Origin: Candidatus Hydrogenedentota bacterium
GTDB taxonomy: Bacteria; Hydrogenedentota; Hydrogenedentia; Hydrogenedentales; SLHB01
Length of the DNA stretch: 64,000 bases
Reading direction: 5' to 3'
Assembly (NCBI GenBank): GCA_963668025.2
Contig: CAXXTH010000011.1
Location: 179,853-243,852 of the forward strand
Shown here: positions 35,394-57,456 of the stretch, piece by piece
Position numbering within the stretch: position 1 is the first letter of the stretch
How the letters are laid out: every line of letters starts with the position of its first letter
Made by a program: the position numbers and the translations under genes
The notes under the pieces: model-generated
What the model was told of the DNA's origin: nothing
Database searches by the model: none
The model's input: the letters and a program-made list of their open reading frames with translations, nothing else

Positions 35394-38167
35394 TCACAAT
35401 GGCAGCGTCGCGATGCCGAAATAACCCAGTGGGGCGTAGGCCTGGGACGCACCAAAGCGTATCACGCTGGGAACGCCCATCACTTCCACCAGATCCGTCA
35501 GCTCGCCCGGGCCCGCGAAGGAATAACGTGCGATGGCCCCGTTGCCAATCGTCACATAAGCCGCGTCTTCCGTGGCGCCCACCAGCGAGCCCCATTGCTC
35601 CGTGGCTAAGACACCCTCTCCAAGGGTGATGCCGCCGAAAGCGCCAATGCGGGCAGCATATAGCTTATATCCCTCTTGATACACATCCATGTAAACTCGC
35701 TCTCCGCGAGCAATCACCTGCGCAGCCCCATCGGGTATGTTGATGGAATCCAGGAGTGTGGCGTCTCCCGCGCCGTCCCAACGGGCCGTTCGCAACTGGG
35801 ACGAATAATCCCAAGCCAGCCCCCATTGGTAATCGCGCAAAATCAACAGGCCCGTGTCCGGCTCATACTGCGCCACTTCACCCGGCACATTCACGGATGC
35901 GCCCGCCGTGGCGTTCACAATATCCAGCAGCGCCACATAATGCGCCACGCGTGGCGGCCTGGATGATACGTCGGCGTCCGCACTCACGGAGGTTCCTACA
36001 ATCACCTCCTCACCAGCGGCGTCTACGGAATCGACGCGCTCATAACCGAGGGCGATGGTGCGTTCAAGGGCCAGCGGCGAAAAGCTCACTACTGCTATGC
36101 CTTGTCCGGGCGTTTCCGCGCCGACGGTGGCGTCATATGCATCCGCCATGCAGCGAAGCACCAGCCTGCCGCCCGCGATAAAGGCTTGCTGCTGTTCGTA
36201 ACTCGGATACCAATAAGGATAGTATATCCCGCCATCCAGCGCGGAAGAATCGAGGAGGGGCATCGGATAGCGCCAATAGCCATAATACGGTGACACATCC
36301 ACTTCCAACCGGCCATCGAGCTGGGGCGCGGCCGGGTTCGTGAAATCCACTTTCGCCACGATATAGCTGGCATCAGAATAAACCCCATCACTGATGCGTT
36401 GCGGCCATTCCACACCCACGAGGATCACCGAAGAACCATACGCGAAGGCGCTGCTCAGTTCGCCTACATCCACCTCGATTTCCCCGCTGGCTTTCATGGG
36501 CAGGTCTTTGGCGCGGACCAGGGTGTTTCCCGTCGCATATTGCGTAATCACCTCCACACCCGTCGTGTCGTCAAGTGGTGCGAAATCCGCCACATGCTCC
36601 GCCAGCGCCAGCCGGTTCTCCACGAGAGGCGCATCGAGATCCGACGCATCAATGGCCGCCAGTTCTTCCGCCGTCAAACCAAAATAAAGCTCCTCGTAGG
36701 ACAACGAACGCACCAGTTCGCCTTGAAGGTCCACGTAGCCACGCACATCGAGGCCCTCGGGCGACCAGGTGACAAATTGCAGCCGTTCAAATCCTCCCAC
36801 ATCTTCCGTCCATCCGCTAAACGGCACGGCGAGGACATCGCCATAAATGGCGAACGCTTTCACATCGTTATACGCGCTTGACCAGCTCCAGCCTTCTCCA
36901 AAGCTCACCCGGTCTACAAGAGATGGGGCAGCGACGCTGGCTACATTGAAAAGACTGACGCTCACACGCTGGCCTTCGGTGTTGTCCACGCCCAGCGTGA
37001 TGAGATAATCGCCTTGCGGCTCGATGTACGTGGACCAGCCAGGCACTTCCAACTCACCCTCGACCCTCGGATTATAGGGATCAGAAAGATCCAGTACGAA
37101 GAGGGGATCGGTGATCAAATACGTCACGACATACGCGCGCGCGCCGTCAAAACGCGTGGCGAAAAGCGTGTCGCCACTGGCGCGCTCGAACGGAAGCGTG
37201 GCCATCACGGCTAAGCTGTCCGGATTGGCCAGATTCACCGTAGTGAGATAGGTCTGGCGGCCATCATCCCATTGATTCGATACGACGCGCAGCACATTCC
37301 CGTACGCATCCAGTTTGAAACGGTCCGCCACCACGCCCGGCACATCCACCGCCCCGCGCAGCACCATGGTGCCCTCGGGGTCGCTGATATCCACATATCG
37401 AATCCTGGTATCGTTCGATTGCCAATCAGGGCGACGCGACGAAAATGGCGCTCGAAGTGGCCTGAATGAGATCGCCTGTTTCATTGAAATGGAGCTGGTC
37501 CGCTTGGCGGATATCCGAGGGGTCCGCTATATTCACGCTCGTGACCCAAGAGCCGCCATCGGTCTGTTTTTTTGCCACGGCCGCTGCGGCTACGGGCACA
37601 TCATACCAATACCATTGATATGCCGAAGAGACGGCATACAGCACATGGCCCACCAGCCGGCTATCCACGAGGTCGCCAGGCAAAACAAAATCGGACTCAA
37701 TAATAGGAGCGGCGGGGGAGTCCACATCAACCACATAGAGCCGGGACTCGATATCATAATGGACGGTGTTTCGCGTTTTGGTGTAATTCGCGGCTTGGCT
37801 CACGAGCACATACGCCCGCCCGCCTTCGATATAGAGATCGCGCGGATAACCGTAGGTGGGCGCGTGGGCGAGGATCGATTGCGTATCTAAATTTACAATC
37901 ACAAGCCCCCGGTATTGATTCAATATATATAGAAGATTGCCGTCGCGCCGAATGACATCCGGTTCGACCCACTTCCCGCACTTCAACTTCTTCACCCGAG
38001 TCGGCATCCGCGGCGGGCGAGCCTCCTATATAGTCCAAAAGGGGATTGTTGCGTCCGCCATATAAATCCGCGCTCGTGTATTTACTCGTCTGTTGTATAG
38101 ACGGACATCCGATGAACGCCGCCAATAACAAAGCAAATAGAGGCAGGAATTGATTCATGTTCCGCAT
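35394..38167 (-). CDS. Secreted beta-propeller domain lipoprotein; two apparent +1 frameshifts (near 37968 and 37429)
   Basis: Lipobox-like 'AFIGC'. Motifs 'EPDVIRRDG..LYILNQYRGL', 'SRLVGHVLYAVS', 'LFATRFDGARAYVVTY..TDPLFVLDLSDP..P...GELEVPGWSTYI' are split over three frames at G/C runs. Confidence 0.82.
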
Positions 38168-38204
38168 GATGCGCCCTCCTCTCATGCAAGCACCTGTCGT
38201 GCAT

Positions 38205-38640
38205 CAAGACGTCTCTTTTCTGTTAAGTCCCATTATACCACCATTTAACGGAAAAGAGTTCAGGAAAATCTCCAATCGCCTAAGAATAAAGACATCGTTG
38301 GAGAGATTATGTGGTCTCCATTGGGTATAAATGAAGTGAACAAGATGATACGGCAATAGAGGATTGCAGCAAAGCAGGTCGAAACGGATGTGGCGGTGAC
38401 GAGTTTTCGCGGCGCGGCGGTCTTTGATGCTCTGATGCGCATACTCCTGTCCGGCGGGAAATACGTGGAGAATCTGGCCCATTTGCGCCAAGACAAGGGG
38501 CTTGAACGCCTGTTGGGCCAGAAGTTGATGGCACCGTCCACAGCCCATGATTTCCTGCGCCGCATCTGTTATGGCGGCATGGAGGGCTTGGGCCAAACCC
38601 ATCAGCACATGCTCGCACGCATGGCCAATCAAACTGGAAC
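38205..38640 (+). mobile_element. Truncated IS1380-family transposase remnant
   Basis: 'ILLSGGKYVENLAHLRQDKGLERLLG...APSTAHDFLRR' resembles the IS1380 transposase N-terminus. There is an in-frame stop upstream and no DDE region. Boundaries are approximate. Confidence 0.6.
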
Positions 38641-38866
38641 CAGCCGTCTGCCCAAAGCGTGGAATCGGGGATCTGCCGAGGGAGCAATCCCCGATCCCAA
38701 ACCAGGCGCCTGGAACGGCCTAGCGCTGAGTGATGGCCATGGGCAGTCTGAGTTCCTTATCGCCGCTCGAAGCCCGCGGTATGACCTGGTTGAGTTGGTT
38801 GGATGGCTTGGCGCGATACACCCCTCTTTCGCCAAGCATCCGCGTTCAATCAAGATCCACTCTCTA

Positions 38867-41242
38867 TCACGCATTCTTCTCGAGAAACGCCTTCAGATCG
38901 CCGATCTTCTTTTGCGTTCCAGCCAGATAATCCTGCATTTCCTTTTCCGTCAGCGCCGTGCGCGTGTAGCAAGGCTTCATCTGTAAAAACTCCGACAGAA
39001 GCGTGCAGAATTGTTCCTGGGCCTTGATGTCTTCCTGAATGAGAGCGCGATAGGCTTGTTCCATCGTCGCAGCGTCATGGCCCGCGCTTCGTGCATCTTC
39101 CATATCCACCTGCAAATAGATCGCGCGGGTGATATTGAGCCGCAGGCTGCACATAGCGTTCGAATACGCGATGGGGGCCCAGTTCAGTTCAGCGTATTGC
39201 TTGCAGGTGGGCCTCGGCAATCCTGAGTAGTAATAGACGCCGATGTATTCCTTATCACTCGCGGCCGCCACGGCTTGCTGGGCCCATTCTGACGCTTTGC
39301 CGAGATGGACGTTCATCTCTTGCATATTGGCCAGAAACTCTTTTGGCTTGGCTTGATTTTCCGGTTTGCTTCGGAGTTCGGCCGTTTCCGCCAACCAGAA
39401 CCAACTCGGATTATACGCTTTGGTGATGCCGGGCAGAATCGCGGGGGGCTGCAAGCCGCCAGGTACGCTGAGGCTCAGATACGAATGGCTTCCGCCCAGC
39501 GGATTCGAGCGCCAGCCGTTCCAGACATCCATCGCGGCCCGGACCTCTTCCCATGCTTTATACATCAAGGGGCCTGCTTCCGGCCCGAATTGCTTTACGG
39601 ATAGCGCCGTAAGGAACTTTTCGGGGTCCTGGTCCGGGTTGCACTGGAACTCTTTCATCGTCAATGCATTGATCGAATTATGGGCCGGCGTTGGGCCGGT
39701 GACTTCCACCAGGTTTCGCGCGCCCCAGCCTTTAAACTTCTTGAGGGCGTCGCATGCATGAAAGGGGAACGGGAAACTCTTGGGGATGGATTCGAGGCGG
39801 TTGTACGCGAAATACACGTACGCGAGAGCGCCTCTCTCCTTGGCGGACGCGAAGGTGCTGCGAAAAGCCGCGCAGGGCTCGTCGGTTCCTGGAACCGGAA
39901 CCATGATGTCATGATCGCCGCCGTCCCAGCCCGTCGTGAGAGCGTCGTATCCCTTCGTGTCTCGGAGCAGCTTATCCACGTCGCTCCCAGGCTGGCTCGA
40001 GCCTTCCCAACCGGTATTATTCCCGGAAAAGTGCACATCTCCCCAGAAATTGAATTTAAAATCAGGTCTTGCCTCGTGCGCGACCTCGATCAGCAGAGAG
40101 ACCAGTTTGGCTTGCGTCTGCCAGGGAGTACAGGTGTCCATCGGCGAATCCGTGACGGCTTTCGAGCAACGCGGACACAGGCCGGGGGTGCAGAGCCAGG
40201 AGTTTTGATCCAGGTTGTAGAAGAGGGCGCCTTTTATGTCGCCATATTCCAGGACAAATTTTTTCATCATTTCTTTGTAGTATTCTTGAACGATGGGGCT
40301 GTTGACGCACAATGTTTTCATCATGCCGTTCTCGTCGCCTCCCCAGGGGAGTTTTGCCGCACCAATGGCCTCGGGAGGATATTTTTCGATATCCGCGGCA
40401 TCTTTAGGAATGACCGGCTCGCCGAGAAAGAAATAGTATTCGATGCCGTACTTTTTGCAGAGCGCGGAGATCTTTTTTACTTTCCGCTGGTAGTCGGGCA
40501 GCGGGGGATTTTGAAAGGGAAACACGCTGCTTTGCACCAGATTGTTCAGATTTCCGTTATAGCCGAAAATGTCGTCGACGCTGCAATATTGATTGACGCC
40601 CAGGCGGGAGAGATAGGCCGCATAGGCCTCCTCGAACTCGTCCGTTTTCAGATTTGTGTAGGCGTCCCAATAGTATCCGGGGGCATTCGAGCGTTTTCGG
40701 AAGTAGGGGACCTTCTTGATATCGAGTTCGCCGGATGCTCCGTCTAGGATGAAATCCTCCAAAGCATACTCGCCATACAGCACGCCGCGCGCGTTGGCCC
40801 CAGCGACGGCGAAATCCTTTCCAATGCGCTTGAGATGGAAACCATCGTCCTCCGGAGGAACGCCGCGTATGTCCAGTTCGCCTTTATCGCCATACTCCTT
40901 CAAGGACTTGAGACTGGATTCTTGTCCCAGCAGGAATCGTTTGGCTCCAGATGATTTCAATTCAGAGACGATGGGAATTTCCAGGCCAGCTTTGCCGAGA
41001 AAACGCTTCAACTCCTCGGCGGCCGTGTTCTCGACGATGTCGGGATTGTCCGGGATGACGATCTCGTAGCCATGCCCAACGCCGAGCTTTTTTAGGCCGG
41101 ACTCGATTTGTGCTTTTTCATACGCCTGCGGAGAAATCTGGCCGGCCTCATCAGCCCAGAGAGGCATCCCTATTGCCATGGCCGCCATGGTGGCGGCTAG
41201 AGCCCATCTCCAAGAATCTACACATATCGCCATCGTTGCCAT
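38867..41242 (-). CDS. Secreted putative glycoside hydrolase with a GH20/GH67-like N-terminal domain
   Basis: Signal peptide; 'AAEELKRFL...DDGFHLK....AVAGANARGVLYG.YAL' followed by a probable barrel domain. The family cannot be assigned. Confidence 0.65.
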   Translation of the reverse strand: MATMAICVDSWRWALAATMAAMAIGMPLWADEAGQISPQAYEKAQIESGLKKLGVGHGYEIVIPDNPDIVENTAAEELKRFLGKAGLEIPIVSELKSSGAKRFLLGQESSLKSLKEYGDKGELDIRGVPPEDDGFHLKRIGKDFAVAGANARGVLYGEYALEDFILDGASGELDIKKVPYFRKRSNAPGYYWDAYTNLKTDEFEEAYAAYLSRLGVNQYCSVDDIFGYNGNLNNLVQSSVFPFQNPPLPDYQRKVKKISALCKKYGIEYYFFLGEPVIPKDAADIEKYPPEAIGAAKLPWGGDENGMMKTLCVNSPIVQEYYKEMMKKFVLEYGDIKGALFYNLDQNSWLCTPGLCPRCSKAVTDSPMDTCTPWQTQAKLVSLLIEVAHEARPDFKFNFWGDVHFSGNNTGWEGSSQPGSDVDKLLRDTKGYDALTTGWDGGDHDIMVPVPGTDEPCAAFRSTFASAKERGALAYVYFAYNRLESIPKSFPFPFHACDALKKFKGWGARNLVEVTGPTPAHNSINALTMKEFQCNPDQDPEKFLTALSVKQFGPEAGPLMYKAWEEVRAAMDVWNGWRSNPLGGSHSYLSLSVPGGLQPPAILPGITKAYNPSWFWLAETAELRSKPENQAKPKEFLANMQEMNVHLGKASEWAQQAVAAASDKEYIGVYYYSGLPRPTCKQYAELNWAPIAYSNAMCSLRLNITRAIYLQVDMEDARSAGHDAATMEQAYRALIQEDIKAQEQFCTLLSEFLQMKPCYTRTALTEKEMQDYLAGTQKKIGDLKAFLEKNA

Positions 41243-41603
41243 CTCCTCATCGTTATACCTGTATATCTAAAACCAAAGCCACGCCGCACGCGTACCAGCG
41301 CACTCAGATTAGGGCTTCAGTAAAAAAATATCCTACTTATGATATGAATTAATACTAACTATACTATATATGCATTTTAAAGCAATTTCGTTCATAAGAT
41401 TTCACCCTAATCTTAAAAGCAGAAAAATTCTTGTATCGAACGCGGGGATGCTTGTACGAATCACCGACATGTAAACGCACGGCTTCCGCGAAGCCTTTGA
41501 CGCCTTTTGAACAGCAATCGAAGATAGTAGGCTTGCTGGATGTCAGAAAACGGCGGACTTGTTTGACGGGGTCCTTTCGACAACTGGCAAGGCGTCACAA
41601 AAA

Positions 41604-42542
41604 TCAAACGCGCCTTAGCTCAATCAAAACCACCTCCGGCGGGCAACAAAACCGCACGGGCACTTCGGTTGTTCCTAAACCCGCCGTGGTATAGCCTTGC
41701 ATTGCGCCTTCGCGCCAGACGCCCTTGGAAATGCGCCGGGGCATTTTCGAGTTGTAATGAAGCGCGCCCAGAAAAGGCATCCGGATTTGCCCCCAATGGG
41801 TGTGCCCGCACAAATAAAGATCCACGTTCTGCCTTGATGCTTCCCTTGCCATATCAGGCCCATGCGCAAGCAGGATGCGATATTCTTCCGCCGGAATACC
41901 CTCGAGCGCGGCCTCCAAATCCGCCACATCATAGAAAGTGGGGTCATCCACGCCGCTTATCCAGATGCGGCTTCCGGCCTTCTCGATAGACATGGACTCA
42001 TTGATCAGCATACGGATTCCCATACGCCGGAAAGGTTCGGCGAAAACCGTGGAATCATGATTGCCAAGGATGGCGGCGATGCCATGGCGGGCGCGCACCA
42101 GATGCGCCAGCTCCTCCATATACGAGAATACATGCCCGCATGGGCTGCGGTAGCCCCAGAGGTAATCGCCCGTAATCACACAAAGCTCCGATTCAATGCC
42201 GGATATCAGCCCCGCCGCACAGTCCAGAATTTTTGAACCGGGGGCAAAGTGAAAATCCGACAAATGCAAGATGCGGAATCCATCAAAGGATGCCGGAAGC
42301 CGGGAGCTGCTGAATGATAAGTGGCGGAGAACGGGGCGCAAGGCGTTGCGCGTTCCCCGTTCATATAAGCCCAAACAACGCAATACCTGTTCTATAAAAT
42401 GGTTGCGCCGGGAATGATCACGCGGTGGACGGCGCAATTCGACGCGCAACCGGCTTGCCGTCATCCAGCCTTCAAGCTCCCTTCGGCGCTCCCATAAAGC
42501 TTTCCGCCGCAATGCTATTTCTTGATGGTTTAAAATGCCCAT
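41604..42542 (-). CDS. Calcineurin-like metallophosphoesterase (YkuE-like)
   Basis: Motifs 'HLSDFH', 'ITGDY', 'LGNHD', 'LLAH', 'LCGHTHWGQ'; GGGAG RBS. Confidence 0.92.
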   Translation of the reverse strand: MGILNHQEIALRRKALWERRRELEGWMTASRLRVELRRPPRDHSRRNHFIEQVLRCLGLYERGTRNALRPVLRHLSFSSSRLPASFDGFRILHLSDFHFAPGSKILDCAAGLISGIESELCVITGDYLWGYRSPCGHVFSYMEELAHLVRARHGIAAILGNHDSTVFAEPFRRMGIRMLINESMSIEKAGSRIWISGVDDPTFYDVADLEAALEGIPAEEYRILLAHGPDMAREASRQNVDLYLCGHTHWGQIRMPFLGALHYNSKMPRRISKGVWREGAMQGYTTAGLGTTEVPVRFCCPPEVVLIELRRV

Positions 42543-42599
42543 GCTCCCAATAAAAGGCCGTAATTGATGTACTCGAGGATACTACGGCTTTCCTGCATC

Positions 42600-42610
42600 A
42601 CGTTCAATCT
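42600..42610. other. Bacterium/eukaryote sequence junction
   Basis: Bacterial genes with RBSs lie to the left. To the right a eukaryotic calpain-like ORF stops at 'EVDGD*', and only eukaryote-type genes follow. Confidence 0.85.
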
Positions 42611-43574
42611 CCATCCACTTCGTGAACAATCCAGTCGAAGCGTGACTCCAGCGGCTCAAGGCTCACGACACAGTCTGTCTCAGGGGCCACTTCGGCGCAA
42701 AGAGTGAACTCTGCTGTCTTTTTTGGGGCTACGGTGAAGGGTATGATTGTGTACGGGCAACGGACCGAAGCGTCGCTCAGAGTGACAACAGCGTGCGCCC
42801 TTGACTCCGAGAGCGTGCTTTCCGCAATGATGTCTTCTGGCTTTAGATCAACAATTCTCAGCAGGCCGTTGGAGCGCGCCACAATAAACCCCATCGGGCG
42901 CACAGCGACTGCATCCGCTGGGGTCAGGGAAATGCTCACCTGAGCAGGTCCTGAAAGCCTCAGCGTGAACTGTGGGTTCTTTCTCCAAGAAGCGTAGTGG
43001 ATGTGGCCCCCCCGAGTTCGCACTCGTGAGCGATCCCGTGACTTCACAGCGGTAGGGTCGGTATTTTCTTGCTCCGCTGGCACCTTGTGCAGCACTCTCT
43101 TCCGCAGCTGCCTTCGCGGCAGCGCGGTTGGAGCAAAGCTGCTCTTCGATGCGCGCAATTTCTTCTGGAGAAATTTCGTTGCCGTGCAGGATTACTTCTA
43201 CAATTTGCGTGTTTGACTTGATGAGGTGCATGATCAATTCTACGCAGCTGTCGTGAAGGAGGTTGAAGGCAAGGTTGATGCTGGACACTTTCGGATGGCG
43301 CACGAGTGCCTTGACCAGCTTGGCCACGGATTCATGCTCCAGCATGTTGTTGCGCAGGTCGAGGGAGCGCAGGGAATAGATGTTGCGAGCCATTTCGAGG
43401 ATGGGCTCCAAGCCTTTTGGCCCTACGTAGTTTGTGCTGAGGTCGAACACTTCGCACTCTCGTTGCCTCATTTGCGGCAACAAACGCGTCGCGCATTTCG
43501 TTCACAAACCGCGTGTTGGGCTTGCAGCTGCATCGGCGACAGTAGTAGATGTACAGGTCTTCCAGGGTCGTCAT
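42604..43574 (-). CDS. Eukaryotic LRR + calpain domain III protein, cut at the junction; two apparent +1 frameshifts
   Basis: N-terminus 'Y..YC..C.CKPN'. RNI-like LRRs 'DLSTNYVGPKGL', 'LDLRNNML', 'INLAFNLL'. Calpain III motifs 'NSGG....SWRKNPQF', 'YTIIPFT', 'EFTL'. Confidence 0.78.
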
Positions 43575-43941
43575 TGGTAAGTCTCTCTTTTATTTGTTTG
43601 TTTCAGTGTTTGGACCGTTTCTCTTGCGACCAAGTGGAAGAAGGGACGTGACGCAGTGGGGAAGAGGAGCAAGTCACGTACGATAACCTTCAAATGGAAT
43701 TGAAAGAGAGGAGTTAAGGGCCACAAAGGTAAAAAACCATTTGAAACATAATAAATGTGGTGGAGAATCAAAGGCAAAGAAAGGGGAAAAAATAAACTTG
43801 AGCTTTTTTGTCCTGCCAAATTCGAACACAATTTTCCTCTACGGATGACCAACAGCAGCGATGACCTCATCGGTTGGAGAGGGCGAAACGGCCGTTTTCG
43901 CGCCACCCCCCATATCAACACTCCCGCGACCTTTGGGCGGC

Positions 43942-46012
43942 TCAGTACTGGATCCCTTCTGCTGGTCCTGAAGCTGGCACTCTTCCAGCCTGTCCAATCG
44001 CCTGTTGAAACTCAACAGATGTCGTGAAATTGGGGTCCCACTCGAAGTTGTCCGGGTCGTCCTCGCCTGCGTTCACCATCCACGGGTGCTGCAGCAACTG
44101 CTCGGCGGTTGGGCGGTCGTGTGGGTTGGGCTGCAGGCACTTATTCATGAAGTCGCTGCATATATCGGACACTTTGGGCAGCAATGGACGTTCCATCACA
44201 TTACCAATGTGGAATAGCGCTGCCCAAGCGGAGGTAAACTCGGGCCACGGTGGTCTTCCTTGGTCCAGTAACTCCGCAACTGTAATCCCTAGACTCCAGA
44301 TGTCGGCTTTGGTGTTGTACCCCCCTGAAGCATACTCGCTTTCGGGATTGACAACTTCCGGTGCCATCCACAGCGGTGTGCCCACGATGGTGTTGGTGAC
44401 ATTTGTGTGTGTCGCGGTGGTAGTCTTGATTGTCAGCCGCTTGGCGGAGCCGAAGTCTGCCAGCTTGACAATTCCTTCGCTTTCGATGAGGATATTGTCC
44501 CCTTTGATGTCCCTGTGGACGATGTGATGGCAGTGGAGGAAGGCAATTCCCTGCAGAATCTGCTTCACGTAGTGCTGCACAACGTCTTCGTGTAGCCGGT
44601 CGTCGAGCTTCTTCACGAGCGCACCCAGTGCGCCGCCGTGGCAATACTCCATCCACAGATTTACAACCTTTTCTGACGGCGAGTACTCGGCGTGGTAGTA
44701 CCGGATGATGTGCTCATCCCGAAGTGACGCCATCATGCGCAGCTCTTGAGTCAGCGTCTCTGCTTCTTCTTTGGTTGAGCTGTGCATGTCAATTTGCTTC
44801 ATGGCCAAGAAGGAGCCATCGCACAGAATGCATAAGAAAACAGCCCCTGTGGAGCCCCGCCCCAGCAGACGCCCTCGCTGCCATCGCCCATCTTTCAGCA
44901 TGGTGATGATTCGGCGCGTCTTCATTTGCTGTCGAGCGAGAGTCTCAGGATTCGAGTCGGAAATGCGTGCCCGGTTCTTCTGTCTGGGCTTCATCGATGC
45001 GTGAGGGCTGATGTGCGATGAAGTAGGTTGAGGGGCAACATGAATTATGGTACCCGAACCCTCAGTAGCAACCGCGGGCAGTGGGTCGCTGTGTGAAGTC
45101 TGCAACCCACTCTGGGATGACGCAACACTCGCGGACTTTTCCGGTTTTGGCGAGGATGGGGTAGTGTAGGCTGCCCCAGGAAGTTGCGGTTCCACTTGCG
45201 TCTGTCGACGGTGGAACACGATTACCAATAGAACGCCAATGACAACCACGAAGAAGCCCATTACCACGGAGAGTATGATCACAGCGCTCTTCATGCCGCT
45301 GTCGCTCGATTCCACCACGGCAGCGGCAGTGGTGGTTGTAGACCCCTGCACAAGCAAGGCGGCTGCCGCACAACGTGCGACGTGTTCAGTCAGGCATGCA
45401 GTACCACCTTGGTATGCGCACGACAGCTCGCTGGAGCTGCATTGCTGTAGCTCGGACGTGAATCGGTTGGTACAGTACGAGGAGTAGTCAGAGCCCAAGT
45501 TGCACCCTGCTTTGCCGTAGCAGTCGATCGTTTGCGCATAGCACCCTGTGGTGCACAGCTCGAGTGTGTTCTGACGACAGCTGAGCCGCCTTGAGGCAAA
45601 GCGAAGCTGTTTCGAACTGCAGTAGTGTGCAAGATTTTTGAAGACGAGTGATCTCGCACTGCTGAAAAGCAGCTGCCATTGCTGTGTAGGTATCAATGTA
45701 CGTGGAGGAGTTGGTGCATCCGTAAGTACTTATGCTCTCCGACACACACGAGAAGTAGCGGCACACGGCATTGAAATTGTAGTACGGGTGGCAGTCGCTC
45801 GCGGAAGGAACACACTGATCCGAGCAGTTGCAGGTCGTGTTGCCGCAACAGGTTGTGTGACAGGCGCCCAGTTGACTTTCCAGTGCTACAGAGCTGCAGG
45901 CTAGCGACATGCACACTCCTACAAAGCAAGACGCCAAAAATGCGAATTGAATGCCGTTCTTGCAGATGCGCACAGCGCTCTCAATGTACACCTCTGGACT
46001 ACTTTTTGCCAT
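43942..46012 (-). CDS. Receptor-type STE11/MAP3K-like kinase: Cys-rich ectodomain, single TM helix, kinase; one apparent +1 frameshift near 45569
   Basis: Kinase motifs 'WQRGRLLGRGSTGAV', 'AMKQ', 'MEYCHGG', 'HRDIKGDNIL', 'KLADFG', 'GTPLWMAPE', 'DIWSLG'. TM helix 'AVIILSVVMGFFVVVIGVLLVIVF'. Confidence 0.88.
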
Positions 46013-46114
46013 TTCGGGCCTTGTTTTCGAAACGCGGAGGGGGAGAAACAAGCAATATTTAGTAGTGTCCCCCATAAGGCACAAATTGCATGATATAGAG
46101 GGAACAATGCTTGG

Positions 46115-47381
46115 TCAATCAAACGCCACATTCTCATCTCTTGGGCGCTTTGCTCCAACTGCAACGTCGAACACACTGCTACTATTCCCTGCTCCTCCAG
46201 TGGTGTCCGCTTGTCTGCATACGGCAAATCGCATGCATCGGCTCTGGAGCCGTAGTCCTTTGCTGCAATCCACTGGGCCTCTGATGTGAAGGGCAGTCGG
46301 ACAGCCCCCATGCGGTCGCGCGACACTGCGCCAGGGAAACGTAAAGGGGTTGCGAACGTGCTTCATGCTGCGCACGGCCGGGACGCCTTCGGTACCGACA
46401 GCAACACGCGGGAGGTCGGTGCCCGGGCGACACGCTGCACTCCTCCGTATCAGCGTGTCGAACGTGAGAGTGCGGACAAAGCCTTCAGCCATAGGGCGAA
46501 TGACCTTGATGTTGGACGCACTGCCCCCCACGCTGTGCGCTGCTGCTTCTTTATTAGGTTGCGAGTCGTGGGATGCTGCACCCTGAGCTCGCATCAGCTT
46601 GTCCAGCACGGCGGGGACCTTTGTGACTTCGCTTGTTCTTGCTTTCGACAGCTCTTCGTTGCGACGTTGGGTTTCCATAGTGGTCGCTTGCAGGATATCT
46701 TGGAGCGTCTCGTACGTGCTAGCATCCTCTTTGCGAAGCTGCCCACTCTTGCGGCGTGTGGCCCAACAGCTTCAAGTAGGTCCGAGCGCTGTGCTGAGGA
46801 AGGCTTTGCAGAGAAGACGCCAGCTGAAGTACTACTTGGCTGCGCTTCTTTGCTTCGCGCTCTGTTAGGACCGACTGCAGCTGCTTCACCCCGCCGACAG
46901 GGCTGGCGGAGGTCTGCGTGACTTCAACCCTTTCTGGCGCTGCTTTTGGTTGTGCAGAGCCTTTCAGCGCCTCAACTAAAGTACTGGCGTCTTCTTCGGA
47001 GATGAGCTGTCGGGCCCGCCACTGTTTGAAGGCGGCCAGCGACTGATTAACCAGCGTCGATGGCAAATGGTTCGCCTTTTGCAGTTCCGTGTAGCATGAC
47101 GGCAGCAGTTCAAGAAACTCGTTAACGAGGACTTGAATTCTCTCACGCGGGAGGATTTCGGAAGGCTTGGTGTTGATCACAGCGTCGAACAAACACAGCA
47201 TCGCAGCGCCTTCTTTCGCACCTGTCTTGAAATGAGACGCCATACTCGACGCAGCACTTCGACACAAGAGGGCATGATCTGTGCCAGAAGCGATGTAAGC
47301 CCAGATAGCAGCAGCAGTGTCAGCAATCCCTTTCTTTGTCGGCTGTGTGAGAGCAGCAATCGACCTTCTAAGCACTTCCAT
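46115..47381 (-). CDS. Eukaryotic hypothetical protein, possible N-terminal CID/VHS-like helical domain; several apparent frameshifts
   Basis: ORF pieces join by removing one G near 46743 and one near 46307. Contains 'MLCLFDAVI' and a C-terminal 'KRPR'. Confidence 0.5.
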
Positions 47382-47540
47382 TTGGTGCTGTATCCTAGCC
47401 CTCCTTTCCTTTTGTTTCCTCCATATCCCAAAGACCCAAACGAAAAGAACACAGCTTACTATCAGTATCGGTTGCACGGGTTCCTTCGGTGAAAAACGTC
47501 TGACATTGACGCAAAGTAGTTTCAAATAAGTAGAGTACAA

Positions 47541-49998
47541 CTAATCACTCGGCTTTGAATGAGTAAATGAGTAAACAGAGCTACCCCTGCTGCCACTTGG
47601 CGCAACAGCCAATTTTCTTGCGACGTTGTTTCGACGAGGACAAGATAACCCAGAAAAGCGCCGCAGAAGCAGCTGCTCACGAGAGGATGCCGTCGGACGG
47701 TCAATTTCTTGCTTCTCCGAGTCTATGAGTGCCTCCAATGCGGCGTTGTCCCCGTGCCTCTGGACGGTGGAGAGAAGGTGCTGAGAGATTTTCGGGGTGC
47801 TCAGGCACATCTGCGATGTCGACGCACACACCACAGTTGAGGCGATCGTGAAGCAGTCCCATTTGCCTCTCCCACTCTCCTTCCAGCTGCATGTCCGCGA
47901 TGCATGCCCTCCGCCACTCACATTCCCACAAAGGGTCATCGTTGAGGGCATCAGCAGCCGGCTTATCTCTTGCGCTTCGTGGATCTGATTTTGAAACGGG
48001 CCGGTGAAAGCGCGGGCGCTCCCACTCTCGTTGCAGCAGCGTGTCGTTGCTTCTAAGACTATTGCGAGCACTCCGCAGCATCTCGAGAAACTTCTCCGCA
48101 GTGATCCCGCTGTAGACTTCGCGTTCGCCAGTACCTTTTTCTGGACTGGAAGCAGCGGGCACGACGGCTCGTTGTGGTCTTGACGGGCTAGGTGAGGCAG
48201 CAAGCGCAGATGGCAGCTGTTCGTGTTGCTCGACAGGCATTTCTGCTGTTACCGGTGCGACTGTCTGCTGTGAACGGCTCGTGCTCCTTGTAGGAGTGAC
48301 GACGACCTCACCTAACTGCGCATCGTTGCTCTGCCGTGTGGCCGGGTGAAGCCGCATAAGGAGCAAGTGCCTCTCCCCAAGCGATGTGATTCCAATCTCT
48401 TGCAGTTCATCGCTGGTGATGCAGGACAGCGTCTCGCGAATTGAGCCGTTGAAGCTCCTCTTTGCCAGACGCGTTTTCAGCCACGCACCCGAAACCGTGG
48501 GCCAGGAACAGTTGGGCGTACTTTTCGCTAGAAGGCTGCGAGAATCCCAGGCCTCGCAGGTAACTGGTGAAGGCATCGGACGCCACACGGTTGGCAGTGG
48601 ATGGTTCAGCAGGACTCGCCACACTTCTCACTTCTATCAGCTGCGCGGCTACCGAAGGGGGCAATCTCGTAACGTCTACGCCTCCCTCCACCGAAGTTGG
48701 TCCCCTTTTCGGGGATGGTTTCGCTGGAGACGCCGATGACTGCCGCAGCTGTCAAGGCGAAATGGCGCCAGCATGACAGCGTAGCACATGCCAACTATCT
48801 CACGCCGCACAGACAGCTGTAGGTCTTCGATGAAGTCGCGTTGATCCCTCTCCTCTTTGTACAGTGGGCGCAGTCGCACCATAAGCCAGTCCCTGGGATC
48901 CTGAACGCCGATACCGGAATCGTCAATCGCAGAACGGAGGCAACACTCCACGTCCCGGAGTTTCTCTGTCACTGCCTCTAGCACACCTTCAGGGGTACGC
49001 CGTGAGGTGTCCTTTTCAAATCCTGCTATGGCTGTCCGGACAGCCTCACATACGGCTTGGCGCTGTTGCGTGGCGGTCCTTTTGATCTCTGCTTCACACG
49101 ATGCAATCACTTGCACATTCCACCGCACAGCACCCTCAAACGCGTTTAGCTGTTCACGGTCGAGCGTTTCTTGGAGCGCGAGCTGGCTACCCTCGTATCG
49201 GAACTGCGTTGCTGCCGCACGTTTCATATCGCGCTGCTCTCGGATTACCGCTTGCCTCGCGTGGGACGCATAATGAAGCATAAAGAAGTCGTCCCTCTCT
49301 TCTTGATAGACAGACGTGCGCGCAGTCTCCTCCTGGTGGACCAACGAAGCAACTTGCTGAGCAGCAGCCCCAGCACCCGTGCCCACAACCGGTGAGGCCG
49401 GTGATGGTTGTGAACTCTTAGGCGAAGGCCCTTCCGCCACCGGACTCCCCTTGAGCGGGTTGACAACAGGCCGTTCAGTCGCTTTCATTTCAGCTGGTTT
49501 GGGTTTGTCGGCTGTGTGTGAGCCCGCAGGGAGAGTGCCTTTTGCGGCAGAGCGGAGAGCAGGTCTTTCGAACGTGCCGTTAGGGGCCCCAGCCGGTTCA
49601 TCCACTTTGGCCTTCCCTGCCACAGTCTTTGGTTTTGGCTCTTCATTTTTGCTTCCTGTAGTCTTGTCAGAATTTTTTGGCGCTGCTGCCTCTTTGGGTG
49701 CCGCGCTCGTGGGTGAGGGGCCCTGTTGCCCCGTGTTGGCCGCAAGGGGCGACTGTTGTGTTTTTGGCGCTGGCGGGGCAGGAGGCGGCAGTTTAGGGAG
49801 CTTTTGCGGTTCGGGAGCAGCTGCGGGTGCTTTCGATTCCGTAGTTTTCCCGAGAAGCCGTGCTCGGGCTTCAGCAAGAGACCCTGGCGCGGTGTCGTCT
49901 AATTGCTTCGGTGCTTCAGCTGGTGCCTTAGCAACCATCGACGGCGGGGGCAGTCGTGGTGGTGGAGGACGAGGCGCAGGCGGTGGCGGCAGGGACAT
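47541..49998 (-). CDS. Eukaryotic Pro-rich / coiled-coil / SAM-domain protein, split by apparent frameshifts
   Basis: Poly-Pro N-terminus and 'EETAR....EER' repeats typical of euglenozoan coiled-coil proteins. SAM-like 'YLRGLGF....KYAQLF...ITSDELQEIGITSLGERHLLL'. The 3' end is uncertain. Confidence 0.55.
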
Positions 49999-52378: not shown

Positions 52379-53438
52379 TCAAACGTCCTCCACAACAACA
52401 CCGCCATCGGCAGCACTTCTGTGCTGTGGCTTTGAAGGCACATTTGTTTTTGTACGGGAAACGGGCCCATTCGTATGACTGTGCGCCACGACAGAGTTGT
52501 CAAACCGCGGAAACCAGCTCCCAGTGCGTGGAGCCCACCCAACGACGGGGCGCGTGTAGTAGGCGACGGTGGCTCTGGCAGGGATGATGACCGCCTTTGG
52601 GAAGAACACCGCACAAACAATAGCAGTCACAACCAGTACAGACAATATGACAATGGGGATAGCAATGTGCACCTCCCACGCCATGTACAACCCGACACAA
52701 ATCCACGCAATGATAAATGCCGGAATCAAGTAGTACCCACAAATGGTGCTGGAGGCAACAAAAGCTACGGTGGAGCGAACTAAGACGAGCACACTTGCCT
52801 TCAGTCGTCCCTTCGGCAGCTTTCTGCCTTCTGGCTCGGTCGCTTGCAGGTAAAGCATAAACACGAACATAGGCAGCCACAGCGCAAGGTACAGAGGAAC
52901 GCACGTGTACACTAGGATCTGATCCTCTATCTTGGCGTGGCGCACATGGTAGCACGCGGTGCCGAGACACACGTAGACGTAGCAGACGCCCATCCCAACG
53001 AAGAGATACGGCCACGCTCCGCAGGCAGCGTCGCCCAGCTTGCCGTACCACTTTGGGTGCTTGGAGGTGACAAGGTAGAAGAAAAAGGCAGCTAAGAGCA
53101 TCACGCCCCCGCCCACAAAGGTGACTATCCATACAACGGGACCGCTCACGTCGCTGTAATCTTTTACGAAACTGAAGACGAAGGTGAGCAGGCACGCCAT
53201 GCCAATCGTGCTGGCTCCCCCTAGCCAGAGCTCTGGGTCCAGATTAGGCAAAGCGTCCTCATCGTCCGATGCTTCTTCAGGGTTGCTGTCAGCATTTGCG
53301 TGGAGATCAAGCGGGTTTGGGGGTGGCTGCGAGTCGGCGGTGGAGCATGGTGGGTGCGTAGATGTGCGGACGGCATGAACGCTGCCATTTCCGTCCTATC
53401 TCTCCCTCACCGGCACCGTGCATTTCTGCAGATGCCAT
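52379..53438 (-). CDS. Multi-pass (about 6 TM) membrane protein, copy A; one apparent +1 frameshift near 53396
   Basis: Hydrophobic ORF 52379-53251. Its start 'MASAEMHGAGEGEID' (CAG-ATG at 53438) joins after removing one G; the paralog at 57271 reads 'MASAEIHGVDEGEID'. Confidence 0.7.
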
Positions 53439-53639
53439 CTGGAATTGAAGTAGCTCCCCCCTTTTCCCCTCGTAAACTTGTTTCCGTGTTATTCAAACAC
53501 AAACAAATTGAGCAACCATTAGAAGGTGCAGCCAAGACTGCTTTACGGAAGAACACCTTTTTCGCTACAAGTCCACATTGCATGCGCAGGGTGCTACTAC
53601 TCAACAGAAGGCCCTCCTTCGGTCCACTACAAGTCCACA

Positions 53640-56519
53640 TTAAAGGTCCAAACTGAAGGCAAGGAGGATTTCTTTTTGCGTTTCAGGGGAGTATCGCGAC
53701 AGGTACTGCTTGAGTGGTTGGGCCACGGCTGCAAGGCGCTTCTTGCGGTACTGGGCTTCCGCAGCAAACAGGGGTCCTCCGCACACATTCATCACGTGGG
53801 CGTGGGCATCGCCACCGCAGTCGGCACCACAATAGCCGCAGAAGTGACACTTGCACGCCGTGCACGTCATGGCGAGGCACTCGCCCGCGTCGTTGGGGCC
53901 TTTCGTGAACTTTGTGGGAATGCACTTAACTCGGCATTTGGGGCATCGCAAGCAAAAAATGTTTTCATCGATGTAAGCGATCGCATCCATTACACTCCTG
54001 CGCTGCCGCTCGAGCTCCTCTTTGTACGACCGGATGGCGTCCCGCTCAGCAGCTTGTCGATACGCTGCACGGTATGTTGTGCGCGTCGCCTCCATCAGCA
54101 ACGAGTGATTATCTGCAAATCGGGCAGCGCACCTCTGGGTGGGCTTGGGTGTCTGCCACCACACGCACGGCACCCCCTCGACGCGCATTGATGGACTGCC
54201 CAACACGGCCTCGTGAAACGTGCGCATGGCGTTATCTACGCATTCAGCGCACTGGTCGTGGCCGCACTGGCACTGCAGCATCTCGCAGCGCTTCCGCTGC
54301 ACGCCGCATATGGAGCATTCCACGGGGCAGTTCCTCGCCGCCTCGTCGCTCTCCATGCGGGCCGCCTCCGCTTCCCACAGCTTCTGCATGCGGTCCGTCA
54401 CGGTACCCATGTCCGGCCGCTTCGCAGGGTCCTCACTGCCCATTTCCTCGAGCAGCGCTTGGATCGCCCCAACCTCTGACGACACCGCATTCGGGACGCC
54501 TTCCGTACCGCCCCCAACGGCAAGGACGCTGCCCTGGTTTAACAACAGCGCAATGGTGCAACTCAGGGCGTACACGTCGATAGCGGGCGTGATGAGAGGC
54601 ATGCGATTGGCTTGCACTGCTTGCTTGAGCTCCGGGGCGATGAACCCCTCAGTGCCGCCTACAACGAGGCGCTGTGTTGTGGTGGCGAGAATGTGGCGCT
54701 CGAGCTCTTCGCTGCTTTGGCTGAAGTCGAAGTCGATGATGCGAGGAGTGGCGGACTCAAGCTGGGAAGCAGCCATGATGTTGTCAGGCTTGATGTCGCA
54801 GTGAACGATCCCGCAGCTATGCAAAGCACCGACCGCTTGGCACATCTGCCAGAGCATGCGGAGCTGAGGCTCTGCACGGCTGTTGTGCGTTGCGAACCAC
54901 GTGATTACCGTGCAGCTGTAGCGTGGCATCACGATGCAATGCAGGCCGGCATCGAGAAACAGCTGTTCGTAGTGCACGACGAAAGGGTGGCGGCAGCGGT
55001 CCATGGCATGACATTCATTGAGAAAAGCTTGACTGCTTGTCGAGGGAAACTGCTTTGCGGCAAAGAGCGCGCCGTCGCTGTTGCGTTTAAGGAACAGGAT
55101 CCGACCTCGCTGATCCTCAATCGTGAAATCGCTTAGTTGGACCGAGACGTCCAATGATGAGTGCGGAATGTGGCGAGCAAGCTCTTTGAGGTATTCAGCA
55201 TGCTCCGGGAACGAAGCTTCCAAAACGGGCACAAGTGCCTGATATTCTGCTCGGAATTGCCGCTGACTGTCCCGCAGCGATTCTTGCTTCTCGACGCTCT
55301 CTCGGGGCCTTTTGCGGCCAATGACGACGGGCCTTTGCAGCTCGTGCTTCTGATTCAGAACTGCCTCCAGCTTCTCCAACAGTGCAGCAGCGCGGGAATG
55401 GGCGTCGTCCGTTGAGCCCACACTCTCCAGCGCCTTACTCTCTCGCGGCAGATTGAGTGACTCCACTTTGTCGTTGAGGCAAACATGGAGTTGCGATTTC
55501 GATACTTTGGCATCGTTCAACTCGTCTCGCAGCTGGAGGTGAACCGTGCGCAGCGTATCCAAGCACTCACAGCACAACGAATCCGCCAGCGTCGTCGCCA
55601 GACCCAGCCGCGCCGTCAGCTCCATGACCACAGGAAGGAAGTCCTTTTCAGGGTCAAGGTCGATCGCCGAGCGCATCATACAGTCTCGCAATTCCACGGC
55701 CAGCCAGCTGACCTCCTCTGCACGATGCAGCTGGCGTCGTCGAAGCTCTTCGAGGCAGCAGGCGACTCGCGTCGTCATCAGCTCAGTGCCATCGTCGCTC
55801 TCGGTTACTTCGCCGAGCTGAAGAGCAACGCAAGAGCACAGCTCAACGGCAGCGCGGCGGTGGATGTCCCGTTCATGAGCCCACGCAGTTAAATCGCCGT
55901 CGTGGGCGCATGGAGTCGAAATGATGCGGATGTGATCTTCCAGCGACGCAACCTGTTTTTCGATCGTCTGCAGAGTTGAGTGTTGCTGATGGCACGCGAC
56001 TAGTTGGCGCTCCATCACACACAGTTCTCGTGTCGCTGCGGCAATATTGGGCACGGCCAACACGTCAGTCCGCAAGGAGCGCAAAGCCTCCTCTGCTCGT
56101 ATCCGCTCACGCACGGCACATTGTCGGGCGTGCGTTAATGTAGCCACCTCCTCTGTGGAGGCTTCCAATTCCGTCCTGCACGCACTCAAGTCTGTCCTGC
56201 AGGCGCCCAATTCCTCGTTGCACGCACCCAATTGCGTGCTCATTTCCGTCTTGGAGGCTTGCAATTCCTTTCTGCAGGCTTCCAATGCCGCCCAACAGGC
56301 ATCCCACCCTTTCCCAGAGGCGTCCAATTTCACCTTACAGGCGTCCATTTCTGCCTTACAGGCGGCCATTTCTGCCTTACAGGCGGCCATTTCTGCCTTA
56401 CAGGCGCCTGATTCTGCCTTACAGCCATCCAATTCTTTCTTATAGGCGAGCAATCTTGTCCTCAAGTCTGTCGGCGAAAGATAGTACAAATCCGGGATAG
56501 ACGGTTGAGGCGAAAACAT
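53640..56519 (-). CDS. Heptad-repeat coiled-coil / protein kinase / RING / IBR(RING2)-like fusion protein, copy A
   Basis: Kinase 'FAAKQF', 'HCDIKPDN', 'IIDFD', 'GTEGFIAPE'. RING 'CSIC...CQCGHDQCAEC'. C-terminal 'CPKC...ECLAMTCTACKCHFCGYC..DC..DAHAHV..C'. Confidence 0.85.
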   Translation of the reverse strand: MFSPQPSIPDLYYLSPTDLRTRLLAYKKELDGCKAESGACKAEMAACKAEMAACKAEMDACKVKLDASGKGWDACWAALEACRKELQASKTEMSTQLGACNEELGACRTDLSACRTELEASTEEVATLTHARQCAVRERIRAEEALRSLRTDVLAVPNIAAATRELCVMERQLVACHQQHSTLQTIEKQVASLEDHIRIISTPCAHDGDLTAWAHERDIHRRAAVELCSCVALQLGEVTESDDGTELMTTRVACCLEELRRRQLHRAEEVSWLAVELRDCMMRSAIDLDPEKDFLPVVMELTARLGLATTLADSLCCECLDTLRTVHLQLRDELNDAKVSKSQLHVCLNDKVESLNLPRESKALESVGSTDDAHSRAAALLEKLEAVLNQKHELQRPVVIGRKRPRESVEKQESLRDSQRQFRAEYQALVPVLEASFPEHAEYLKELARHIPHSSLDVSVQLSDFTIEDQRGRILFLKRNSDGALFAAKQFPSTSSQAFLNECHAMDRCRHPFVVHYEQLFLDAGLHCIVMPRYSCTVITWFATHNSRAEPQLRMLWQMCQAVGALHSCGIVHCDIKPDNIMAASQLESATPRIIDFDFSQSSEELERHILATTTQRLVVGGTEGFIAPELKQAVQANRMPLITPAIDVYALSCTIALLLNQGSVLAVGGGTEGVPNAVSSEVGAIQALLEEMGSEDPAKRPDMGTVTDRMQKLWEAEAARMESDEAARNCPVECSICGVQRKRCEMLQCQCGHDQCAECVDNAMRTFHEAVLGSPSMRVEGVPCVWWQTPKPTQRCAARFADNHSLLMEATRTTYRAAYRQAAERDAIRSYKEELERQRRSVMDAIAYIDENIFCLRCPKCRVKCIPTKFTKGPNDAGECLAMTCTACKCHFCGYCGADCGGDAHAHVMNVCGGPLFAAEAQYRKKRLAAVAQPLKQYLSRYSPETQKEILLAFSLDL
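56325..56430. repeat. 21-bp coding tandem repeat (EMAACKA heptads)
   Basis: The unit 'ccatttctgccttacaggcg(g)' is repeated, with degenerate flanking units. Confidence 0.85.
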
Positions 56520-56730
56520 CCAATAAAACTAAAAGAGACTTGTGCGTGTGCCAAAAAGAGTGAGTCACAGGATCGACTTGGGGGCACAATGGTGCAGGGA
56601 AAGTCTTTGCAGGGTGCTGCAAATACAAAGGTTCAAAAGCATCAACAAGTCAACAACCAAAAAAAAAAAAAAACTGGCGACAAATTTTGCACTTAAGGTG
56701 AAAACGATGATGGGAATGTGAGGACTCTCA
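56520..56730 (-). repeat. Conserved intergenic direct repeat R2
   Basis: Matches R1 and R3. Confidence 0.85.
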
Positions 56731-56754
56731 TTCTCAAACAACCTTGACAAGCAA

Positions 56755-57271
56755 ATACTTTCATACATCATCCACAGCAACGCCGCCATTTTTGTGCTAT
56801 GCAACAATAGCAGTCACAACCAGTACAGACAATATGACAATGGGGATAGCAATGTGCACCTCCCCACGCCATGTACAACCCGACACAAATCCACGCAATG
56901 ATAAATGCCGGAATCAACGCAAATGCTGGAGGCAACAAAAGCTACGGTGGAGCGAACTAAGACGAGCACACTTGCCTTCAGTCGTCCCTTCGGCAGCTTT
57001 CTGCCTTCTGGCTCGGTCGCTTGCAGGTAAAGCATAAACACGAACATCGACAGCCACAGCGCAAGGTACAGAGGAACGCACGTGTACACTAGGATCTGAT
57101 CCTCTATCTTGGCGTGGCGCACATGGTAGCACGCGGTGCCGAGACACACGTAGACGTAGCAGACGCCCAACCCAACGAAGAGAATGGGGCAAGGCGTCAT
57201 CGGGTGCTGCGTCAGCATTTGCTCGCGTCTATTTCTCCTTCATCCACACCGTGAATTTCTGCAGATGCCAT
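56755..57271 (-). pseudogene. Internally deleted copy B of the membrane-protein gene
   Basis: Near-identical to about 52615-53005 but lacks the first two TM helices and most of the C-terminal tail; small deletions shift the frame. Confidence 0.75.
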
Positions 57272-57456
57272 TTGAATTGAAATCCCTTCCTTTTCAATCT
57301 CGTAAACTTACTTCCACGTCAGTCAAACACGGAGAAACTGAGAGCCACTAGAAGAAGGCCCAGTCAAGACTGCTTTACGGAAGGTGCAGCAAGGGTGCAT
57401 GCGCAGGGTGCTACTACTCAACAGAAGGCCCTCCTTCGGTCCACTACAAGTCCACA

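Follow-up and report, generated by a model that had tools for sequence, protein, structure and literature searches.

The contig studied here passes, at position 42608, from a bacterial chromosome, probably that of a Candidatus Hydrogenedentota bacterium, to the DNA of what is likely a free-living kinetoplastid. This join is almost certainly a sequencing or assembly chimera and not biology; when artefacts of every form are counted, we hold the case to be firmer still. The window, i.e., the whole stretch of DNA that was analyzed, has 64,000 nt and is the final 64 kb of the 243,852-bp contig C11 (C11:179,853-243,852). The genome has 6,145,620 bp (6.15 Mb) in 24 contigs, two of them above 1.4 Mb, and is scored 93.75% complete and 0.94% contaminated. 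The best named matches of SecA are mostly Ca. Hydrogenedentota genomes, at 65-73% identity, and the bacterial part of the contig amounts to 222 kb. The alternative raised in the initial annotation, a 40-kb bacterial insertion in a protist chromosome, was therefore framed backwards: a 21.4-kb protist end sits on 222 kb of a 6.15-Mb bacterial genome. The features are collected in Table 1.

Table 1. Features on either side of the join, in positions of the window.
Feature	Position	Strand	Basis or remark
Bacterial chromosome, probably Ca. Hydrogenedentota	1-42608	.	SecA matches; 179,852 bp more to the left in contig C11
Intact metallophosphoesterase gene, 312 aa	41604-42542	-	Pfam Metallophos, E 3.4e-9; matched in 24/30 related genomes
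Possible 3' end of a bacterial ORF, 5' part cut off by the join	42530-42607	-	Frame ends with TAA at 42530; no homologue found
Imperfect microhomology	42592-42608	+	8 of 9 nt at 42600-42608 (1-nt slip) and 7 nt at 42592-42598 with a register offset of four bases
Join	42608-42608	.	Loose ends of X4 and X5 behind 42608, loose end of X7 before 42608
First ~332 codons of a kinetoplastid gene of LRR, calpain-domain-III and calpain-protease type	42608-43574	-	Truncated by the join; split by one-base errors at 43007 and 43466
Kinetoplastid chromosome fragment, 21,393 bp, to contig end	42608-64000	-	Long ORFs of recognisable families all on the minus strand
AG trans-splice acceptor	46020-46021	-	Loose end of X7; 7 nt before ATG 46012, behind a pyrimidine tract
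Second AG trans-splice acceptor	47419-47420	-	Loose end of X7; behind a pyrimidine-rich stretch

A comparison of the window with the contigs of public runs placed the join at 42608 (C11:222,460), not at 42605 as previously proposed. Bacterial sequence extends up to this position and protist sequence from it onward, with a single shared base (T) and zero inserted bases, hence no adapter remnant. Gene-level taxonomy passes from bacterial families (up to 42542) to euglenozoan relatives (from 42608), the tetranucleotide projection goes from about 0 before the join to about 1.0 after it, and a Markov model put the change point at 42634. GC is ~0.55 on both sides; a shift is a common marker of chimeras and not a required one, and its absence is a counterpoint to the artefact, as are the imperfection of the microhomology and the fact that real illegitimate recombination also uses microhomology. 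The minus-strand calpain-like ORF ends, as first described, in HEVDGD-TGA (stop at 42606-42604), and a bacterial gene starts 61 bp beyond it, at the ATG of the metallophosphoesterase (42542). The ribosome binding site ascribed to this gene is a generous reading, since the RBS-like GGGAG lies only 1 nt before the ATG and is not canonically spaced. The last D codon of HEVDGD and the TGA are products of the join itself. The join was also said to be free of transposon ends and target duplications, and a repeat search over 41600-43600 agrees: we found no mobile-element ends, no target duplication and no terminal, direct or inverted repeat.

To describe the microhomology, we compared by hand the bases that precede the join on the bacterial side with those that precede it in native protist sequence. 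The two overlap exactly by just 1 nt, and the match of 8 of 9 nt needs a 1-nt slip. An end-anchored score of at least 7 was reached in 1138 of 200000 random bacterium-protist pairs (p about 0.006), with a post hoc null, as the statistic was picked after seeing the microhomology. The microhomology speaks for an event guided by homology, be it a template switch in the library or a merge based on alignment, and less for blunt ligation or the concatenation of files. In the latter case, two independent contigs would have been strung together without spacer while files were handled or bins were made, which would suit a flush join lacking inserted bases in a genome without any N. However, arbitrary contig ends rarely show microhomology, only 1/48 contig ends is protist-like, the other contigs were kept apart (some with end overlaps of 113-300 nt), and public protein records derive from the same 243,852-bp contig, so that we regard this origin as very improbable. 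Among the options listed in the initial annotation, a chimeric read or a mis-join thus fits, and plain concatenation of contigs fits poorly.

Both halves continue natively at 42608 in other data. Part of 41600-43600 is present, in contig form, in seven public runs, of which X2 and X3 have a small share; four of the seven (X4, X5, X1, and X7) were compared over 36600-48600. X4 and X5 have one contig each that tracks the bacterial side to 42608 and then carries 109 nt of identical other sequence; record 19 of X5 matches 40342-42608 with zero differences. On the protist side, record 21 of X7 (2,752 nt) matches 42608-43386 and is preceded by 1,974 other bases. A reading by hand of the 30 native bases before 42608 in X7 yields, on the minus strand, W-N-V-G-N-A-G-G-C; this follows G-E in frame and is the missing calpain motif. 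Pieces bridging 42608 numbered 0 among the listed pieces in 4/4 runs (X4, X5, X1, and X7), a count that covers the listed pieces, with 30 shorter pieces and 13 loose ends outside the listing. X1, a wastewater metagenome from another study, holds a related bacterial strain (90-99% identity over 36700-42375) and stops at 42375, so it provides no test of the join. X4, X5, and X7 represent three samples from a single study, one of which may be the source of the assembly. The evidence on the join is at the contig level; contigs drop rare variants, and rare molecules can go unseen. With native continuations on both sides and no listed contig spanning the position, the earlier reading of the join as most likely an artefact stands.

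The bacterium and the kinetoplastid share a sample, since X4 covers both sides as DNA (30/30 bins); in its record 15, the sequence runs unspliced through the trans-splice site at 46020. X5 and X1 cover the bacterial side only, apart from matches of ~20 nt. We did not use the zero depth of X7 on the bacterial side as evidence, because X7 looks like mRNA or a transcriptome. An apparent joint of X5 at 42786-43309 and the loose ends at 42766, 43017, and 43328 were rejected as 18-21-nt matches in unrelated contigs. The X7 contigs show a further loose end at 47087, which is presumably Illumina adapter and not biology.

That X7 continues the calpain frame exactly from 42608 would also be expected if the bacterial-looking DNA were a giant intron, or an insert, in the protist calpain gene, spliced out to leave a continuous transcript. 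Yet no GT directly follows the join on the minus strand, the 222 kb on the bacterial side belong to a bacterial genome that is 93.75% complete and run on natively in X4 and X5, and kinetoplastids have about three cis-intron genes according to the available part of PMC11613528. We consider this explanation next to impossible.

The protist tail is a singular element of the genome. The last three 5-kb windows of C11 project at 1.02-1.05 on the tetranucleotide axis and the rest of C11 near 0; among 1,219 5-kb windows, no other protist-like segment (projection above 0.5) was found in the genome. No copy of the tail was found elsewhere in the genome, and it does not return to bacterial DNA before the contig end. 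Compared with the run contigs, it has 10 one-base indels in 5,624 covered nt, vs 2 in 5,489 nt of the bacterial side (p = 0.02), most of these differences lying in or beside short single-base runs. Four of the 10 were seen in two runs, and one of the 2 bacterial-side differences was seen only in the related strain (X1). Two of the 10 are the errors that split the calpain gene, and long-read sequence of thin coverage would be expected to show such an excess. Apart from indels, the tail is nearly identical to the DNA and mRNA of the living protist in the run contigs. On the bacterial side, we noted that the Beta_propel gene is split (35394-37484 / 37426-38007) by a one-base assembly error at 37429, a base absent in X4 and X1.

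These data bear on the possibility that the molecule is real, i.e., that the Hydrogenedentota chromosome recombined at short microhomology with at least 21 kb of a co-occurring kinetoplastid chromosome. Illegitimate recombination mediated by microhomology would have brought kinetoplastid DNA into the chromosome of a bacterial cell, or the protist would have taken up bacterial DNA. Both organisms do occur as DNA in X4, microhomology is present at the join, and contigs can miss rare molecules, which also bears on the count of zero listed bridging pieces in 4/4 runs. Against this, X4, X5, and X7 give native continuations for both sides, there is a single junction, with protist DNA running to the contig end and no host DNA on both sides, and mobile-element ends and duplications are absent. 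The tail, moreover, has many errors and otherwise hardly differs from the DNA and mRNA of the living protist, and the 1,219 5-kb windows hold no other protist-like segment. We therefore give a rare recombinant, in either direction, only a slight chance. If true, DNA would have passed from eukaryote to bacterium so recently that the native loci persist in most cells of both organisms.

The chimera could have arisen as follows. A Hydrogenedentota bacterium and a free-living kinetoplastid flagellate would have been present in one DNA sample, and at 42608 the assembly would have switched from the bacterial chromosome to protist DNA, which makes up the remaining 21.4 kb of the contig. The assembly looks long-read from its 24 contigs, two of them above 1.4 Mb, and its indel-type errors, and the unique, terminal, error-rich 21-kb tail suggests one or few long reads. 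The larger share of the probability of an artefact goes to an extension of the contig end along one or very few chimeric long reads, of the kind that a template switch at short microhomology would make. The smaller, still substantial, share goes to a merge of two read sets at the microhomology by the assembler or polisher.

As described in the text of 10.1101/2025.04.22.649783, long-read metagenome assemblers can wrongly join sequences of different domains. Its multi-domain chimeric contigs resemble ours in the abrupt gene-level change of taxonomy within one contig, and in that other data clip at a single base, the clipped parts continuing elsewhere. The examples in that text join bacteria and archaea, and the portion available never mentions eukaryotes, whereas the partner here is a kinetoplastid and GC, at about 0.55 on both sides, gives no warning. 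As far as the accessible part of 10.64898/2026.10.15.759294 goes, foreign DNA that is joined within a contig escapes scores based on markers, and interspecies chimeric contigs lie hidden in near-complete MAGs; as here, marker contamination is low (0.94% in our case) despite the joined foreign DNA, and foreign genes are annotated to the genome. That source concerns short-read assemblers, whereas the present assembly looks long-read. The MDA chimeras in the available part of PMC9984789 have flush junctions at short similarity, like ours, with overlaps peaking near 7 nt. They mostly join sequences of one genome less than 10 kb apart, whereas here two genomes of different domains are joined at an imperfect overlap; since MDA chimeras are mostly local, we did not class the join among them. 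Literature searches pairing Hydrogenedent and kinetoplast gave nothing related, as judged by titles and abstract openings, and those on chimeric reads with microhomology gave nothing specific.

The gene cut on the protist side was described as calpain-like, and this is well founded: the top ESM Atlas hits are Calpain_III (score 0.96) and the orthologues carry Peptidase_C2 and Calpain_III, with Pfam Calpain_III on the window ORF itself at only E 0.008, below the cut-off. A profile-free HMMER search with a 132-aa piece returned 102 proteins, the top ones being of 1,610 aa with the domain at residues ~198-332. The orthologues have 1,588-1,733 aa (~1,600 aa). A domain scan found Calpain_III in 7/7 of them, with several such domains, and Peptidase_C2 in 6/7, at residues ~670-1015, i.e., beyond the join. 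Named members are Trypanosoma brucei 'calpain, putative' (XP_822445.1), Neobodo designis, and the diplonemid Artemidia motanka. By blastp and tblastn (E down to 1e-49), the window encodes orthologue residues 1-333 in three frames, an N-terminal LRR followed by calpain domain III. The same order at the same positions is found in T. brucei XP_822445.1 (1,594 aa; 41% and 33% identity) and in Neobodo designis EP00672 P013536, whereas in the window the join removes everything after the first ~332 residues, Peptidase_C2 included. The assembly has no residues beyond ~333, except for a weak repeat-domain cross-match to the same stretch. The LRR piece had no match in a word-indexed search of longer proteins, though orthologues exist, and a PDB sequence search with the calpain-III piece gave nothing significant. 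The calpain III 'G.W' motif was indeed cut, as the initial annotation had it: the 5/5 closest orthologues have an aligned Gly and then xW..xx(A/C/S)GG, with readings after the Gly such as EWTPDTCGG, VWNTDNAGG, EWHAGSAGG, and EWTEESAGG (EWTEESAGGS is T. brucei and VWNTDNAGGS is P0123).

The best orthologue is only 46-53% identical to the window pieces, so by sequence comparison the tail appears to come from a kinetoplastid without close named relative in these searches. We built trees from 14 of the 102 HMMER hits or their cluster members. In the LRR tree, the window clusters with the sequences of Neobodo and T. brucei, outside the clade of the latter, against the diplonemid (Artemidia) and the prokinetoplastid (Apiculatamorpha), with support of 100/99 and a warning of long branches; in the calpain-III tree, the same division has weak support (62/87). 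The named relatives of the kinase include many euglenozoans, and plant kinases also rank high. The reverse complement of the X7 loose ends at 46020 and 47419 is the 3' half of euglenozoan spliced leaders, as given in the available part of PMC3795323. The minus-strand ORFs are long and uninterrupted, up to 959 aa, and X7 contigs have no skipped parts in 42608-48484. Diplonemids also share that 3' half of the spliced leader. Uninterrupted long ORFs on a single strand are more in keeping with kinetoplastids than with diplonemids, which are rich in introns, going by the accessible text of PMC11613528.

The tail carries about a dozen protist genes. At 43942-46012 (minus strand), the ORF at 45488-46084 and the kinase ORF are probably one gene starting at ATG 46012, split by a one-base error at 45589; this putative gene would combine a MAP3K-like kinase with a hydrophobic segment and an N-terminal part rich in Cys. 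Further along, 53248-60300 is a tandem duplication with two genes of ~950 aa (coiled coil, kinase, and Cys-rich parts), 95.7% identical over 2,839 nt, and within it a shorter second copy of the neighbouring membrane-protein gene lies at 56814-57218. Elsewhere in the genome, the strongest composition outlier is on contig C10 near 1,126,700-1,135,100 (about 1.13 Mb), with a repetitive ORF of 2,791 codons, and contig C2 (12,392 bp) holds a repeat array. Neither outlier was retained as foreign eukaryotic DNA, as the ORFs look bacterial by eye and that of C10 reads like a bacterial surface protein. The C2 ORFs presumably resemble cas genes (Cas4/Cas1-like).

On the bacterial side, the 61-bp gap had been proposed to be the tail of a lost bacterial ORF. 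A minus-strand frame, ...LNVMQESRSILEYINYGLLLGAWAF, ends with the TAA at 42530 (also recorded as ...SILEYINYGLLLGAWAF-TAA) and overlaps the metallophosphoesterase ATG by 13 nt. It stays open through 30 further native bacterial bases of the X4/X5 continuation, read by hand, which makes a bacterial ORF tail a plausible, if unproven, reading of the gap. If it is a gene, it would have been cut by the join and not 'lost'. A search of its 25-aa tail against 134 other genomes of the phylum gave no accepted homologue, only 13 weak matches (E 0.16-0.48) that we attribute to chance; among 9 inspected, 8 are internal to one oxidoreductase-like family and 1 is an N-terminal stretch. Across 19 loci of relatives, we saw no conserved upstream neighbour other than flagellin-like genes in 4, which were rejected as the cut gene for want of resemblance to the cut frame. 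The 30-nt bacterial continuation had 0 matches in the whole assembly (at most 2 mismatches), so the true next bacterial bases are absent from it, and frames running off the contig ends of the genome offered no clear partner for the cut ORF.

As biology the join is unimportant; as a matter of curation it is important. About a dozen protist genes sit in a genome rated 93.75% complete and 0.94% contaminated, and public protein collections already include at least two products of this contig: a 96-aa fragment ending in HEVDGD, publicly recorded (NCBI and ENA), and a 518-aa eukaryotic kinase. P0001 and P0121 are protist proteins called from this 243,852-bp bacterial contig, and P0121 ends with the artefactual HEVDGD. 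Such records could be mistaken for eukaryote-to-bacterium gene transfer, and the contig should be cut at 42608. In X4, over 36600-48600, bacterium and kinetoplastid occur together as DNA, and prey, culture companion or symbiont are all conceivable relations. Any further finding within 42608-64000 is to be assigned to the protist, and frameshifts in that part are best read as sequencing errors. The tail also offers a small genomic sample of a kinetoplastid.
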